IMG/VR virus record: IMGVR_UViG_2718218129_000003
DNA: 38,372 bases
Strand: one strand, 5' to 3'
DNA from: a virus
Taxonomy: Duplodnaviria; Heunggongvirae; Uroviricota; Caudoviricetes
The notes under the pieces are model-generated. The model searched no databases, had not been told where the DNA came from, and saw only the letters and a program-made list of their open reading frames with translations. This document shows positions 24,498 to 30,574 of the stretch, in pieces. The first letter of the stretch is position 1; each line of letters starts with the position of its first letter. The position numbers were made by a program, and so were the translations under genes.

Positions 24498-25531
24498 TGG
24501 GAAAGAGTAAGAAGAACCGAGCTGCGGCGACGAAACAGATCCAGCTTAAAAGTCAAACTACAGCCGAAGCATTCAGCTTCGGCGATCCCGTTCCTGTTCT
24601 GGACCGCCGTGAACTGCTGGACTATGTGGAATGCGTACAGATGGACCGTTGGTATGAGCCGCCCGTCAGCTTTGACGGACTGGCGCGCACCTTCCGCGCC
24701 GCCGTGCATCACAGTTCCCCGATTGCAGTAAAGTGCAACATTCTGACCAGTACCTATATCCCTCATCCGCTGCTCAGCCAGCAGGCTTTTTCGCGTTTTG
24801 TGCAGGACTATCTGGTATTTGGTAACGCCTACCTGGAGAAACGCACGAACCGATTCGGTGAAGTTATCGCTCTTGAGCCTGCGCTTGCAAAATACACCCG
24901 ACGCGGATTAGACCTGGATACCTACTGGTTTGTGCAATACGGTATGACAACCCTGCCGTATCAGTTCACGAAAGGCAGCATTTTTCATCTGATGGAACCG
25001 GACATCAACCAGGAGATCTACGGCCTGCCCGGTTATCTTTCTGCCATTCCGTCAGCCCTGCTCAACGAGTCCGCCACGCTGTTCCGCCGCAAGTATTACA
25101 TTAACGGTAGCCATGCAGGCTTCATCATGTATATGACCGATGCCGCGCAGAACCAGGAAGATGTGAACAACCTCCGCAACGCAATGAAAAGCGCCAAAGG
25201 CCCTGGCAACTTCCGCAATCTGTTTATGTACTCGCCTAACGGCAAAAAGGACGGACTTCAGATTATCCCGTTGTCAGAGGTCGCAGCGAAAGATGAGTTT
25301 TTGAATATCAAGAACGTGAGTCGGGATGACATGATGGCAGCACATCGTGTGCCGCCGCAAATGATGGGGATTATGCCGAGTAATGTTGGGGGGTTTGGGG
25401 ATGTGGAGAAAGCCAGCCGCGTCTTTGTTCGCAACGAGTTGATACCTCTGCAGAAGCGCCTTCAGGAATTGAACGACTGGCTTGGAGAAGAAGTCATGCG
25501 TTTTGAAGATTATAATTTAGGTATTGAATGA
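24494..25531 (+). CDS. Q: Portal protein Q
   Basis: 345-aa ORF overlapping the P stop by 4 nt. Confidence 0.9.
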   Translation: MMGKSKKNRAAATKQIQLKSQTTAEAFSFGDPVPVLDRRELLDYVECVQMDRWYEPPVSFDGLARTFRAAVHHSSPIAVKCNILTSTYIPHPLLSQQAFSRFVQDYLVFGNAYLEKRTNRFGEVIALEPALAKYTRRGLDLDTYWFVQYGMTTLPYQFTKGSIFHLMEPDINQEIYGLPGYLSAIPSALLNESATLFRRKYYINGSHAGFIMYMTDAAQNQEDVNNLRNAMKSAKGPGNFRNLFMYSPNGKKDGLQIIPLSEVAAKDEFLNIKNVSRDDMMAAHRVPPQMMGIMPSNVGGFGDVEKASRVFVRNELIPLQKRLQELNDWLGEEVMRFEDYNLGIE

Positions 25532-25536
25532 TATTT

Positions 25537-25567
25537 AAAAGCCTGTACAAACAGGCTTTTATTCTTT
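25537..25567. terminator. Bidirectional hairpin terminator between Q and the cargo operon
   Basis: AAAAGCCTGT-ACAA-ACAGGCTTTT, with A-runs on one side and T-runs on the other. Confidence 0.55.
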
Positions 25568-25600
25568 AGTTTAAAATCACCAAGACATGAGCATTAAAAC

Positions 25601-26266
25601 TTAAAGATCCGGATCTACAGGCTCATGATATAGATTTACAGGGTAATGAATAACTTCATAATTCAGTTGAGTAACTGTGTGAACATGCTGGCTATAAAAA
25701 ACCAATGGATTTTTTTGACAAGGAGTAATCGTTATAGATTTACAGGCATGAATTCTTGGTGCGAATTTATCTAAATGCGCCTTCCAGTTGCTCATCATTT
25801 CATTACATTTTCTATTACGAGTATAGATAATCAATCCACCACTTGCGCTGTCTACGGTCCCTGTACTATATCGTTCAGTGAGTTGAGCATACCCTTTAAA
25901 TAAATAACTATATGAAGATGTATGTTTTTTGGCTTCGCCATGCCAAATATAATCCTTTAGTTTTATTGTAATATCACAATGTCCGCGCTGATTATTTTCA
26001 TGAAATGCTTCAATGCCCATATCTTTATTTTTGATATTGGCCAATAAAATTAAAGTAAGCTGATCTTCTGTTAAATCGAAGTTTAACTTATTTGAATTCT
26101 CTTCTATTTCCTTTACAGCAGAATCAAGTTCAATCCTGACAAATTGTTTGAAATTATCGTACGATTGAAGTGCAAATCTAACACGAGTAATAGAAGCATT
26201 AATACGCTGAAGAAAAATATCATTATCAATATCAGCCAAACTCATTGCTGCAGACATTTTTAACAT
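25601..26266 (-). CDS. Hypothetical protein, third gene of an AT-rich three-gene cargo operon
   Basis: 221-aa ORF sharing one nucleotide with the upstream gene. No recognised family. Contains a D-x13-E-x-K pattern (HCDITIKLKDYIWHGEAKK). Confidence 0.6.
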   Translation of the reverse strand: MLKMSAAMSLADIDNDIFLQRINASITRVRFALQSYDNFKQFVRIELDSAVKEIEENSNKLNFDLTEDQLTLILLANIKNKDMGIEAFHENNQRGHCDITIKLKDYIWHGEAKKHTSSYSYLFKGYAQLTERYSTGTVDSASGGLIIYTRNRKCNEMMSNWKAHLDKFAPRIHACKSITITPCQKNPLVFYSQHVHTVTQLNYEVIHYPVNLYHEPVDPDL

Positions 26267-26712
26267 CAGATAATATCCTTTGATTTAGATTCATCTAATG
26301 TAAAAAAAGGAAATACGAATGACTTATAGTCATACATAAGCTCCCCTGTAAATGGGTTTACTAAAGATTGACTGATTTCCGCCTCAATAACTTCCTCTAT
26401 TTCAAGTTCTACAGGGTCATGAAAATCATCAATGAACCAATAATTGAGTTTTAAAAAATCAACCTTTGGGCTACAAAGAATTTGTATGGCCGGATAGATA
26501 ACCTGCTCATACGTTTCTGGCTGTAAAACCTTATTATAACCACCAGCTATATTAAATAAATCCTTATAACTTAAAGCTATATTTGATGATTTTTTAGCCC
26601 TTGCCTCGATTTCATCGTACAAATAGCAAGCTAACGCCCCAATTTCAGGGCGTTCTGCACACATTTCTTTGATGATCTTGGGCATATCACCATCCTTCAT
26701 TGCTGACTCCAA
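26266..26712 (-). CDS. Hypothetical acidic protein, second gene of the cargo operon
   Basis: 148-aa ORF whose start abuts the stop of the 371-aa gene. No recognised family. Confidence 0.6.
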   Translation of the reverse strand: MESAMKDGDMPKIIKEMCAERPEIGALACYLYDEIEARAKKSSNIALSYKDLFNIAGGYNKVLQPETYEQVIYPAIQILCSPKVDFLKLNYWFIDDFHDPVELEIEEVIEAEISQSLVNPFTGELMYDYKSFVFPFFTLDESKSKDII

Positions 26713-27819
26713 TTATAATATCAGCTTTGTGAGGGTTTCGAAATCATCTTTGGATATACATTTACTTAATATAGCATAGTTAACAGGAGAGCAACTACTC
26801 CCTCCTAGATGCCTGCGGAGTGTTCCCGGAATGATAAGCTCTACGTTATCCGCTAATTGCAGTTTTGGATTATTTCTATCAACTCTAATTCCAATACGAT
26901 ACAAACCAATACTGCCTACTGCTTTGATGCCTTCCTTATTAAACAAATCATCACGTAAGTCTTTAGTGGCCACATTTTTCTTTTCTTTATGCGTAGTCCC
27001 CTCATTCGTCAAAAATGACAAATCAAAGACTTTATAGCTTAATTTTGAATAAGGCAATGAATTTTGTTTGAAAATTGGCTCAATTAACGGATAAAAATCT
27101 TTTTCCGATGATTTAAATTCATAACCGACATGATTATACAATTCACGAATAATGTTACTCTTTGCAAAAGTAACATTATCACCAATAATATTACCATTAG
27201 TATCTACCAAAACATGAATTTTATTAGTAACAGAGTCTAATATACAGACATCAAAACATTGTCGCTTTTCTTTTCGCTTTGCAATAATTTCATCAAACTG
27301 CTTGTATTGCGCAAGTGCTGACGGGGGAATTTTTTCTCTTACAACTAATTCTCTGACAGATGAAAAAACAAGTATTGACTGGGTGTTTTGAATAGAATAA
27401 TTAACAAGTTCAGGTTGATTTTTTACAGCATTTTGCAATTGGACATCATCAAGGATCGAATCAACCAATAATGATGGTTGATTCATCAAATTCCATTGAA
27501 AACTAAATCTGTCATTTAGTGTTTTAATTACACTATTATCTACAGTCAAACTAAATATTGCTTTTTCACCATAAACGACCTGACCAAAAATTAGGTCATT
27601 TACGTTTGCCATAATGCCATCAAACTTTTGCCTATCTTTACTTTTAAGATCAATGAGGCTTTCTAGTATTTTTTCGTTTGTTGCTTCACGCCCCCTACCT
27701 GTTGGCAGCCCTAAAGACGCAATAATTGGCCTTGCAACGTTCCATGTGAAACGTTCAGTTAAGGTCAAGATCGACTTTAACTCAGACTCAGAAAGCACTA
27801 CTGGGACACTACCTGTCAT
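26713..27819 (-). CDS. Hypothetical protein, first gene of the cargo operon
   Basis: Start placed at the ATG preceded by AGGTG (the ORF track starts at GTG 27828). About 368 aa, no Walker A motif, no recognised family. Confidence 0.6.
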   Translation of the reverse strand: MTGSVPVVLSESELKSILTLTERFTWNVARPIIASLGLPTGRGREATNEKILESLIDLKSKDRQKFDGIMANVNDLIFGQVVYGEKAIFSLTVDNSVIKTLNDRFSFQWNLMNQPSLLVDSILDDVQLQNAVKNQPELVNYSIQNTQSILVFSSVRELVVREKIPPSALAQYKQFDEIIAKRKEKRQCFDVCILDSVTNKIHVLVDTNGNIIGDNVTFAKSNIIRELYNHVGYEFKSSEKDFYPLIEPIFKQNSLPYSKLSYKVFDLSFLTNEGTTHKEKKNVATKDLRDDLFNKEGIKAVGSIGLYRIGIRVDRNNPKLQLADNVELIIPGTLRRHLGGSSCSPVNYAILSKCISKDDFETLTKLIL

Positions 27820-27978
27820 AACTTGCACCTAGTCATCCAAAAAGCAATAAGAATTTGCTCTTGTCTTAATTTATCCTTCGATACCTAACAAATTACCTCA
27901 ATGTTGAAAAAATTTGCAAGCCATTTGCTTCTAAAAAGCGACCTTACTCAGAGTGTTACAAAACTAAGCGAGCGCGCG

Positions 27979-27997
27979 CTCGTATCCCCGCCACGCC
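27979..27997. other. Candidate cos (cohesive end) site
   Basis: The reverse complement GGCGTGGCGGGGATACGAG matches the first 13 nt of the P2/186 19-nt cohesive end as I recall it (GGCG(A/T)GGCGGGGAAAGCA.). Adjacent palindrome CGAGCGCGCGCTCG. Confidence 0.4.
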
Positions 27998-28549
27998 TGC
28001 CCGCTTTATGCAGTGATTTTCATGCACCTGCATGACATAAGCGAAAGCCCGCCAGTTCTGGGGGGCCTCAGCAAAAACGATCCTCAAACGATCATGCAAT
28101 TTCATGCAGCATAGTCATGCACAGCCAAGAGAAGTGAAAATCCGTATCTGAATGACCACTTAAAAAACGAAATATACGGGTTTACAAACATGGAGGTTCA
28201 CTGTGAGCGAAGAGCGGAAGTTGCCTTAATTAGGTTACATGGGGGACAAATGTTACTAGCATGATTATGCGGGATACTTACAATACCACGCCTTAATTGC
28301 TTTGTTATCCCACCAGAAAGTCATGGAGCCGCAACTGATAAGAAAATTGTTGTAAAAGTGCCAGTTGGTTACTCTGAATTTCTGCTTAGCCAGGAGAGTG
28401 CCTGCGTTGTCAGCGAATGCGTAAGTTGATCCTTCAATGCAGAAATAGTTCAATTTATTAAACAACACTCCTGGCGGGATTAACGCCGCATCTATAATGC
28501 GTGAGAGTGTGCATGCGCAATTTCAGCAAAAAAATTGAAAATAGCGCTA

Positions 28550-29521
28550 CTAACTTCCCTTTATTTTTAGTTCGTTAAAAATATCTTCGATTACCAATCC
28601 ATTTTTAATTAAATGCTGCACAATATTTTCATATTCTTTGAAATTGTCAATATGCAAGCCATGATCTTTTTCTTTAGCAATTCTCGTGATCACATGTACG
28701 CTATCTGTATAATCAATCTTATTTTTAAGAGCATTGAGCAAACTTATACTTGGATTTAAAGTTGAGATTAGTTTACCAAACTCGGTTTGTAACTCTTTGG
28801 ATTGATGAGTATTAATATAATCTTCAATAAAAGCATCAAAATCTCCTTGCAACTCAACTTTAAGGTTTGCTATATCCTTCATAATATTTTCTAACTCAGA
28901 AGAGTATGGCCGACCATGTTTAAAATCGAATAAAAAAAGATTTGCTTTCTCAATACATTCGCAAATATAAAAAACTGTATAAAGGGAATATTTTTGCTTA
29001 ACTTTTAATTTTCCATAGGCGTAGTGAACCAAAAGATGCTTAGCATTAATAACATTTTTATTTTTTGAAAGTTGATTGTTAGTTGCAGGCGGATAAATTA
29101 CCACATCAACATTATCTAAATTTTGAAAAGTTTTTAAAATAAGAGCCTCAACCTTATTCCAATCGAGGCCCCCATTACCACAGCCTAAAGGTGGTATTGA
29201 TATTGATGTAATTTTTTTTTCATCTATAATTTTTGCTAAAGATTCAAGGCCTTGCGAGATAAAATCATATGTTGATTTTTTTCTCCAACTATCTTTAGTG
29301 GGAAAGTTTACAATTATTTTTCCCTTTTCCTCTACAATTAAAACCTGTCCAATTTTCATTGTACCAGTGGCGCATGCTCTCTTATAAACTTCGAAATTAT
29401 AGGGAAAAGTTTCTTTAAAAGCCAAAGCAATACCCTTTCCCATGACTCCTTGGCAGTTTACAGCATTCACAAGAGCTTGCGATGTAGAGTTTAGAAGATT
29501 TCCGCTTGCATACTTAATCAT
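28550..29521 (-). CDS. darG: DarG-like antitoxin (N-terminal macrodomain ADP-ribosyl hydrolase)
   Basis: Macrodomain motifs GNLL…ALVNAVNCQGVMGKGIALAFK…NFPTK…IPPLGCGNGGLDW. Directly downstream of the DarT gene. Confidence 0.8.
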   Translation of the reverse strand: MIKYASGNLLNSTSQALVNAVNCQGVMGKGIALAFKETFPYNFEVYKRACATGTMKIGQVLIVEEKGKIIVNFPTKDSWRKKSTYDFISQGLESLAKIIDEKKITSISIPPLGCGNGGLDWNKVEALILKTFQNLDNVDVVIYPPATNNQLSKNKNVINAKHLLVHYAYGKLKVKQKYSLYTVFYICECIEKANLFLFDFKHGRPYSSELENIMKDIANLKVELQGDFDAFIEDYINTHQSKELQTEFGKLISTLNPSISLLNALKNKIDYTDSVHVITRIAKEKDHGLHIDNFKEYENIVQHLIKNGLVIEDIFNELKIKGS

Positions 29522-29525
29522 AGAA

Positions 29526-30107
29526 TTAGAACATATAAGTGTTGATCGTTATCAATATACTTAATCCTTGTTGTTTTATCAACCCTTCAACATATTTTTT
29601 TTCGTTATCATTTTTGACAAAGATGCAATGGAAATTTTTCGGCTCGACCGTTACACTTGATAAACACTCAGCCATACATACAGATTTGCATTCTGCATTT
29701 TTATAATCCCTTATATTCATTAGCTCCCAGTCAATTTGGGCCATTCCTTGTTCATAATCTAAGAGGTCTATAACAGAACTGGTGGATAATGGATGTTTAG
29801 GGATAACTTTCCAACCATTTTCTTTGGCAAATGCCCGACAAACCGAAATAATACAAAATGATTTTTCCTTATGATCTTTCAGGACTCTTCCATCAAATGG
29901 ATTCTTAGTAAAGAAATGAAAAGGAACCATTGTTTGCAAATTTAATGCTTCGCGACCTGTTATTATTTCACCGTCGGCCACATCAACAAACTCACCTTTT
30001 ACTGATGCACGAGATCTTAATCCTGTATCTAAAATACTAGGTAGATTATCCATACATGTTAAATGATAGAGAAGATACTGATCTTCAATTCTTTTCCTTT
30101 CGCTCAT
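29526..30107 (-). CDS. darT: DarT-like DNA ADP-ribosyltransferase toxin (DUF4433)
   Basis: N-terminal LLYHLTCMDNLPSILDTGL, plus VPFHFF and a C-terminal AEC motif. Tightly linked upstream of the macrodomain gene. Confidence 0.8.
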   Translation of the reverse strand: MSERKRIEDQYLLYHLTCMDNLPSILDTGLRSRASVKGEFVDVADGEIITGREALNLQTMVPFHFFTKNPFDGRVLKDHKEKSFCIISVCRAFAKENGWKVIPKHPLSTSSVIDLLDYEQGMAQIDWELMNIRDYKNAECKSVCMAECLSSVTVEPKNFHCIFVKNDNEKKYVEGLIKQQGLSILITINTYMF

Positions 30108-30574
30108 TTCAACTCATCCTTTCAAATTCGTAAGTCTATTTATAGAACCAAACCTCACTGGCAGTCAAGGTTTTTAAGATTATTCACATTGCCTTCTGCC
30201 TGTCGATCTAATTATTTTCGATTTTTTGGGTATGATTTGGCATTATTGATATACAAGGTAAAACAATTTTTCAGTAGTTTACTGACGCTGAGTGATTACG
30301 ATAGCTAGCTTGGGAAGGAAATGGCCATAGTGCATGTGCTGAACAAAATGAAAAAGGCAGGGACATTCTGGTCTTCCCCATGAGTATGGATTTTCATTGC
30401 ATCGATGGGTATGAGCAACGTCCCCTTGATTAAGGATAGCGTTGCATCGACCCGTTGAACTCACAACACAAATCGTACAATCACTTATCAAAATGGCCGC
30501 CCACCTTACGCCTCGTTTCACTCGCTACCCAAACTAGCCCCCATCAGAATGAATCCTCCTGGGGGCAATGTTTC

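Follow-up and report, generated by a model that had tools for sequence, protein, structure and literature searches.

We have analysed a 38,372 nucleotide (nt) stretch of viral DNA (Caudoviricetes; IMG/VR record IMGVR_UViG_2718218129_000003), referred to as the window, and in particular three consecutive genes on its minus strand that we call A, B and C. Gene C probably encodes a divergent Mg2+-dependent nuclease with a catalytic site formed by E67, D98, E111-x-K113 and Q128, acting as the effector of an A-B-C operon in the hotspot of a P2-like prophage. Gene C is an open reading frame (ORF) of 221 amino acids (aa) at 25601..26266 and its product, a predicted PD-(D/E)xK nuclease, is annotated in RefSeq as 'hypothetical protein' (WP_016239485). 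The ORF of gene B (26266..26712) encodes a putative acidic adaptor protein of 148 aa when read from a TTG start; RefSeq and Rousset et al. use later ATGs, giving 139-144 aa. Gene A (26713..27828) is an ORF of 371 aa from a GTG at 27828 (368 aa from an ATG at 27819 in RefSeq).

A preliminary description of this DNA had noticed an Asp followed 13 residues later by E-x-K in the gene C protein. Translation of 25925..25981 on the minus strand gives HCDITIKLKDYIWHGEAKK, residues H96-K114 of gene C, and bears this out: D98 is encoded at 25973-25975, E111 at 25934-25936 and K113 at 25928-25930. The end that had been given for the segment (25985) lies 4 nt past its actual end. The bare pattern had been graded as weak evidence and shuffling agrees, since D-x(8-25)-[DE]-x-K is present in 72% of 5000 shuffles of the gene C protein and the exact D/E-x-K spacing in 5.6%. 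What places the D98/E111/K113 motif above chance is its conservation, not the pattern itself.

A word-indexed homologue search with gene C found 37 clusters, all from Enterobacterales and none with a Pfam domain. In the alignment from this search none of the close homologues departs from D98, E111 or K113 (36/36), and E67, H89, E90, G95, H96, W108, Q128, R132 and Y133 are equally invariant. When 1.84 billion representatives were searched exhaustively with a HMMER profile, the family grew to 568 representative clusters (50% identity) at E<=1e-3, of which 445 are at E<=1e-10. Conservation was then counted in the 149 best representatives, which are pairwise no more than 50% identical. D98, E111 and K113, together with G95, G125 and Y133, are present in 149/149, Q128 and R132 in 148/149, and E67 and H207 in 147/149. 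The family signature can be written G-G-H-x-D-[IV] ... W-[LI]-[GA]-E-A-K ... G-[FY]-x-Q-L-x-T-R-Y, and, as far as an alignment can tell, this pattern of invariance has the appearance of a catalytic site. Beyond the canonical set the family also conserves H96 (131/149), W108 (146/149), H196 (134/149) and the H207 already mentioned, and C97 and C183 are frequent; these residues may form an extra metal or substrate site that is atypical of PD-(D/E)xK enzymes.

The family lies outside the curated collections. No Pfam, NCBIfam or PADLOC model matches the window gene C protein or 56 diverse family members, and the only PHROGs matches of A, B and C are to the 'unknown function' families 12777, 11490 and 9664. 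Pfam matches to Rep3_C (E 0.0027) and DUF7628 (E 0.046) fall under the curated cut-offs and were dismissed. A 2761 aa protein with 18 matching stretches (P0182) was likewise rejected as a relative of gene C, the match being a spurious coiled-coil match to the N-terminal helices.

The AlphaFold2 model of gene C, built from the 36-sequence alignment, has a mean predicted local distance difference test score (pLDDT) of 89.9 and a predicted template modelling score (pTM) of 0.85. DSSP assigns helices at 10-32, 36-56 and 67-76, strands at 85-88, 99-103 and 106-115, a helix at 120-133, a strand at 142-149 and a helix at 154-172, followed by three further strands. Helix 67-76, the next three strands, helix 120-133 and strand 142-149 make up an alpha-beta-beta-beta-alpha-beta core. 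E67 (codon at 26066..26068), which is conserved and begins the first helix of this core, is the probable catalytic or metal-site Glu of that helix. D98 heads strand 2 (99-103), E111 and K113 are on strand 3 (106-115), which is adjacent to strand 2, and Q128 is on the helix that follows, within the conserved motif Q128-L-T-E-R-Y133 (25868..25885). The PD-(D/E)xK reading in the preliminary description called for an Asp and an E-x-K on adjacent strands of a restriction-endonuclease-like core, and this is the arrangement seen in the predicted structure.

Foldseek searches of the Protein Data Bank (PDB) with this model give McrC as the best match (6hz4_M, E 3.6e-3, prob 0.82, template modelling (TM) score 0.28). 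The top 50 PDB matches are weak and are mostly PD-(D/E)xK enzymes, among them McrC, Bax1, Cdn1, AF1548, Nt.BspD6I, HincII, Hjc, Cap4, Can2, Cas4, cap-snatching endonucleases and an R2 restriction-like endonuclease. Matches in BFVD are equally weak, although several are labelled restriction endonuclease or PD-(D/E)XK nuclease. Taken together, the modelled core, the residues invariant in 149/149 sequences and the predominance of nucleases among the fold matches support the PD-(D/E)xK reading in silico. The gene C product is very probably a PD-(D/E)xK (restriction-endonuclease-type) nuclease of a new, divergent family inside this known superfamily.

The predicted catalytic layout is closest to those of McrC and Hjc. 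When the gene C profile is aligned with the single E. coli McrC sequence using hhalign, D98 is in register with McrC D244 and EAK111-113 with DAK257-259, which are the McrC catalytic residues reported by Pieper & Pingoud (2002); QL and GGLIIY/GGLLIY stretches further downstream also align. McrC, from the McrBC type IV restriction system (PDB 6hz4), resembles the predicted gene C nuclease in having no recognition module and in depending on a partner protein. There is, however, no HMMER-detectable sequence similarity between the two. Gene C is also shorter (221 aa against 348) and has an N-terminal two-helix hairpin, and it has an RdgC-like protein and an acidic adaptor as partners, whereas the partner of McrC is the GTPase McrB. 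We have rejected membership of the McrC family, because there is no Pfam McrBC match in the window protein or the 56 family members, the hhalign probability is 2.5% and the operon has no GTPase gene. Hjc (PDB 1ob8/1ob9) has the catalytic set E12-D42-E55-K57, which is the same four residues at nearly the same spacing as E67-D98-E111-K113 (31, 13 and 2). Against this, the structural score is weak (E ~0.3), gene C has extra N- and C-terminal elements and the genomic context is different. Nothing points to junction specificity for gene C.

The genomic context of C is highly regular. The stop codon of B overlaps the start codon of C (TGATG), and the triad is a strictly syntenic, translationally coupled operon. 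In the word-indexed search, homologues of A were found two locus tags away from homologues of C in Rosenbergiella, Rouxiella and Serratia genomes. More distant loci were collected by scanning GTDB genomes with a degenerate DNA pattern for WxGEAK-x13-QLxxRY, which gave at least 120 loci. The pattern was fully specific, with a C homologue in 120/120 GTDB loci listed and in 145/145 IMG/VR loci. The C homologues of the GTDB loci come from Alpha-, Beta- and Gammaproteobacteria and Cyanobacteria, with two from Bacteroidota and one from Arthrobacter. Among the matches listed, 90 GTDB loci have at least 1.7 kb upstream of C. The order A-B-C is present in 68 of these 90, a large protein with a B-like domain followed by C in 14, A followed by C with a B too divergent to detect in 4, and C only in 4, two of which are NACHT-HEAT-C fusions. 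The same DNA pattern found 145 viral contigs in IMG/VR, and all of the informative ones (96/96) have A-B-C; an isolated Klebsiella phage, KP12, also carries all three genes. In all, the triad was found in Proteobacteria, Cyanobacteria and Bacteroidota and in at least 123 viral contigs of IMG/VR. The genes on either side differ from locus to locus (113 flanking proteins matching 113 different Pfam families, integrases being commonest), which marks A-B-C as a self-contained mobile unit. PADLOC-DB v2.0.0 has no match for A, B or C of the window, while the neighbouring DarT and DarG, which served as a positive control, were matched strongly.

The C domain is also attached to proteins of a different kind. 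At least nine STAND nucleoside triphosphatases (NTPases) with NACHT or NB-ARC and HEAT or TPR domains have it as their terminal domain (P0063, P0095, P0112, P0123, P0128, P0129 and P0176, and at L008:1652-4693 and L056:309-3902). These fusions have no B domain. In the loci seen they are mostly cyanobacterial, and the position of the nuclease after the repeats, rather than at the N terminus, is an unusual order. STAND/Avs (NLR-like) defence proteins are sensor NTPases with nuclease effectors and have the same architecture as these fusions, but differ from the window system, which has no NTPase at all. From the synteny of A-B-C in hundreds of loci and the fusion of C to STAND NTPases we infer that C is the effector of the three-gene system. 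In another protein (P0169, 356 aa) a C domain (27-214) is joined to a C-terminal LexA-like Peptidase_S24 domain (E 3.2e-25), and this fusion suggests that self-cleavage triggered by RecA and single-stranded DNA may be another way of controlling the C nuclease.

Gene B appears to supply the link between C and its partners. The protein is very acidic (isoelectric point (pI) 4.4, net charge -13; family median pI 4.7), and conservation in the family is found mainly in the last ~70 residues (...FEFID....EL...E...A...G.L.HP.TGE...DF...V..YF). In the window this C-terminal module corresponds to B residues 70-137 (26302..26505, minus strand). A hidden Markov model (HMM) of the C-terminal domain, built from standalone short B proteins only, matches window B 70-137 with E 5e-23 and also matches the extreme C-termini of large proteins with E values of 5e-17 to 1e-8. 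According to Pfam, these large proteins are seven Type ISP enzymes (L095, L115, L055, L079, L046, L039 and L087), two Type I HsdR subunits (L030 and L013), one EF-Tu and one FeeM-like enzyme. A C gene lies directly downstream of every one of these fusions, often with a 4-nt overlap.

The Type ISP partners have the architecture Mrr_cat_2-helicase-coupler-methylase-Type_ISP_C. One of them (L095) keeps its own Mrr_cat_2 nuclease domain, so that C is an additional nuclease there and not a replacement. The EF-Tu partner (L038:4575-6924, Litoreibacter roseus) is a full-length paralogue with all three Pfam domains and a C-terminal extension of ~177 aa that ends in the B domain, followed by the C nuclease gene. 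This paralogue is part of an island and not of a ribosomal operon, its neighbours being an HD-domain protein, a GHKL (HATPase_c_3) ATPase and an integrase, and it may be an EF-Tu-based phage sensor. A link between EF-Tu and the sensing of phage (capsid) has been documented for Avs7 (PMC13581612). The last partner is an N-acyl amino-acid synthase of the FeeM type that ends in a B domain and is followed by C (L120:4562-6741, Bradyrhizobium semiaridum); it fits neither the DNA-enzyme nor the translation-factor theme. The C genes of the Type ISP loci form one clade, and each of the HsdR-, EF-Tu- and FeeM-linked C genes is closest to a C of the triad type. The B-domain fusions therefore arose several times independently.

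The AlphaFold2 model of gene A (pLDDT 86.3, pTM 0.84) points to a DNA-binding partner. Its only strong fold match in Foldseek is RdgC, over ~320-350 aligned columns (E. coli and P. aeruginosa RdgC, 2owl/2owy; E 1.4e-5 to 7.8e-5, prob 1.00), and CENP-N is next. RdgC is a toroidal, recombination-associated DNA-binding ring protein. Gene A differs from it in sequence, with 10% identity, and in having an extra N-terminal helical region. None of 39 diverse A members has a Pfam match, RdgC included, and PADLOC found no family among them, with just two isolated single-member matches. Because the fold match is not accompanied by a Pfam signature, we describe A as having an 'RdgC-like fold' and not as a member of the RdgC family. 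On the basis of the model, gene A is a probable DNA binder and the putative sensor subunit. A link between gene A and Kiwa KwaB (DUF4868) was looked for and none was found.

The window is an E. coli P2-like prophage, with a 99.9% identical stretch in strain 2022CK-00450, and A-B-C fills the interval that has the portal gene Q at one end and a cos-like sequence at the other. The gpQ-gpA interval of P2-like phages is a diversity hotspot that has been shown experimentally to carry anti-phage systems (Rousset et al., 2022; PMC9122126). The triad is 'System #91' in Table S5B of that study, which gives 36 occurrences and lists no domains (PMC9122126); these represent 36 of 18,150 E. coli P2 hotspot loci. 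A blastn search with window 25400-28400 found the cassette in 20 of 5,426 complete E. coli genomes, always adjoining the portal gene. Two separate variants are present, one in 8 genomes at ~99% and one in 12 genomes at ~84% nucleotide identity, and strain MS 115-1 is among the carriers. Our literature search, which extended to RdgC-like defence proteins, to fusions of Type ISP enzymes and EF-Tu and to a 2025 modularity screen, found no paper on the A-B-C cassette beyond its listing as System #91. The hotspot system Rst_3HP ('hp + hp + hp', E. coli E1114) likewise consists of three Pfam-less hypothetical proteins in the gpQ-gpA interval and has been validated against phage P1 (Rousset et al., 2022; PMC9122126). 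A-B-C is not Rst_3HP (341/363/227 aa), since the best BLASTP match to Hp1-3 has an E value of 0.41 and no HMM score reaches 4 bits.

These data make A-B-C a candidate modular defence system composed of a sensor, an adaptor and a nuclease. The C-terminal domain of B (~70 aa) would dock on the C nuclease and hold it latent, and B would tether it to a partner, which is A in the window and elsewhere a restriction enzyme of Type ISP or Type I, an EF-Tu paralogue or a FeeM-like protein. The cue for A might be foreign phage DNA or intermediates of replication or recombination, and that for the other partners an anti-restriction protein or an EF-Tu-binding phage protein. Once the partner had engaged its cue, the C nuclease would be released or activated and would cut nucleic acid, most likely DNA, so that the invader is destroyed or the infection aborted. 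With a restriction enzyme as partner this would be the logic of PrrC-EcoprrI (and RloC), in which a latent nuclease is physically coupled to a type I restriction enzyme. In 9 of the 120 loci listed the B domain is at the C-terminus of a Type ISP enzyme or Type I R subunit with C next to it, as if C stood guard over the restriction enzyme and fired once a phage had neutralised it. PrrC, however, is an ABC-ATPase-like anticodon nuclease whereas gene C is a predicted PD-(D/E)xK enzyme, and the window cassette has the RdgC-like A as partner in place of a restriction enzyme.

A bolder extension, which we put forward tentatively and consider doubtful, is that the B domain and C constitute a portable 'retaliation' module that has been grafted repeatedly onto proteins which phages have to engage or neutralise (Type ISP and Type I restriction enzymes, an EF-Tu paralogue and an RdgC-like DNA binder), so that interference with these proteins unleashes a McrC-like nuclease. 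If true, an adaptor domain and a nuclease family that had not been recognised before would underlie a guard strategy that is general and PrrC-like, and the P2-like prophage would carry the retaliation module as a stand-alone three-gene immune system.

Several results weigh against C as a DNA-cutting effector of a defence system. No sequence method ties A, B or C to a solved structure or a curated family, and sequence and profile searches of the PDB with the three proteins gave no matching chain. Foldseek searches of the PDB and BFVD gave no match for gene C with E<1e-3, TM scores being 0.2-0.3, and the hhalign comparison of the gene C profile with the single E. coli McrC sequence has P=0.018 and a probability of 2.5%. 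The match between A and RdgC is at the level of fold only (TM 0.30-0.38), and the structural evidence on the cassette consists of predicted models throughout. The contact between B and C and the logic of latency and trigger we infer from gene order and fusions alone. The EF-Tu partner, a component of the translation machinery, hints at a possible RNA substrate for C. Finally, location in the hotspot is no proof of defence, as about a quarter of P2 hotspots hold partition genes, and System #91 was outside the set tested by Rousset et al. (PMC9122126).

Other explanations of the cassette were considered. That the motif is coincidental and C is not a nuclease at all, but a degenerate DNA-binding domain or an unrelated fold, would account for the frequency of the bare pattern in shuffled sequences (72%), the lack of any curated family or solved structure identified by sequence and the fold-search E values, which are all above 1e-3. 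An inactivated site would not be expected to keep E67, D98, E111, K113 and Q128 in 147-149 of 149 sequences, however, and the confident model puts these five residues exactly at the canonical positions; this conservation and fold essentially exclude the explanation. It is also possible, though distinctly unlikely, that C is active and has the nuclease fold but cuts tRNA, rRNA or mRNA and arrests translation in the manner of anticodon nucleases. Some PD-(D/E)xK enzymes do cut RNA, cap-snatching endonucleases are among the fold matches, one partner is a full-length paralogue of EF-Tu, which binds aminoacyl-tRNA, and the restriction-linked PrrC cuts tRNA. Against this, McrC, Bax1, Hjc and nicking enzymes, which match best by fold and profile, are DNA nucleases, and most partners (the RdgC-like A, Type ISP and HsdR) either act on DNA or bind it.

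The remaining alternatives accept a nuclease but give the cassette another role. In the first of these, B and C form a toxin-antitoxin or addiction module, with C as the toxin, the acidic B as a DNA-mimic-like inhibitor and A as a regulator, that mainly stabilises the prophage or the fused gene and does not sense phage. The small size and strong acidity of B, its position directly upstream of C and its translational coupling to C (TGATG overlap) would all fit, as would the joint movement of the B domain and C onto unrelated genes and the scattered, integrase-associated distribution of the cassette. A two-gene toxin-antitoxin system would not need A, however, and A is kept in 68/90 genome loci and 96/96 viral loci. 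In addition, C is fused directly to NACHT-HEAT sensors without B, which is the architecture of an effector and not of a toxin-antitoxin pair. We consider an addiction module unlikely as the explanation, although toxin-antitoxin activity and defence by abortive infection can both hold. A role in phage DNA metabolism, with an RdgC-like modulator and an Hjc- or resolvase-like nuclease serving prophage replication, recombination or packaging near cos, is very improbable. The RdgC (recombination-associated ring) fold of gene A, the Hjc-like E-D-E-K layout of C, the presence of Hjc among the fold matches and the position of the cassette between the portal gene and the cos-like sequence would agree with such a role. 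With only 36/18,150 hotspot loci and 20/5,426 genomes carrying it, however, the cassette is dispensable for P2-like phages, and in contexts other than phages the same module is joined to STAND NTPases, restriction enzymes and an EF-Tu paralogue.

If C is the nuclease effector of A-B-C, as we consider probable, a family of 568 clusters that lies outside Pfam, NCBIfam and PADLOC now has a predicted catalytic centre (E67, D98, E111 and K113) and is identified as the predicted effector of a compact three-gene cassette that is common in prophages of many phyla. In the P2 hotspot this cassette had been counted as System #91 but not explained. The adaptor domain points to a modular design in which a single nuclease is wired to sensors as different as restriction enzymes, an EF-Tu paralogue and STAND proteins. 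It may hint at a second line of defence that fires once restriction is disabled, a long-standing idea for which there are few molecular examples. Should the system be validated, A-B-C would be due for inclusion in defence-system annotation tools.

The annotation of the 99.9% identical stretch in strain 2022CK-00450 starts with terminase and portal, which are followed in order by the three 'hypothetical proteins', an IS5 fragment, a macro-domain protein with DarT, DinI and the replication endonuclease gpA, and continues to the integrase. A terminator scan found a hairpin at 25536..25561, with an 11-bp stem and T/A tracts, in the gap where the 3' ends of gene C and the portal gene face each other, and from its sequence it is likely to act as a terminator in both directions and to close the A-B-C operon. 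Beyond the other end of the cassette the cos-like sequence, read by eye at ~27966-28040 (GCGCGCTCGTATCCCCGCCACGCCTGCCCGCTTTATGCAG...CATGCACCTGCATGA), is very similar to its counterpart in the P2-like locus of E1114 that Rousset et al. had cloned; the window has no match to the canonical P2 cos 19-mer, even when 3 mismatches are allowed. In the packaged genome A-B-C would be at the portal-proximal end.

The hotspot also contains a DarTG toxin-antitoxin/defence pair, which the cos-like sequence separates from A-B-C, so that this prophage has two cassettes flanking cos. The pair is made up of the DarG macro-domain protein (28550-29521, minus strand; PADLOC E 2.8e-80) and DarT (29526-30107, minus strand; PADLOC E 2.2e-36). 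Between the A-B-C cassette and DarG is a fragment of an IS5/IS1182 transposase (28286-28393, minus strand). In NZ_CP104681, the closest complete genome, DarT is followed by an IS1A insertion that has no counterpart in the window, and the blastn blocks against this genome overlap by 10 bases at the IS1A junction (window ~30239-30248).

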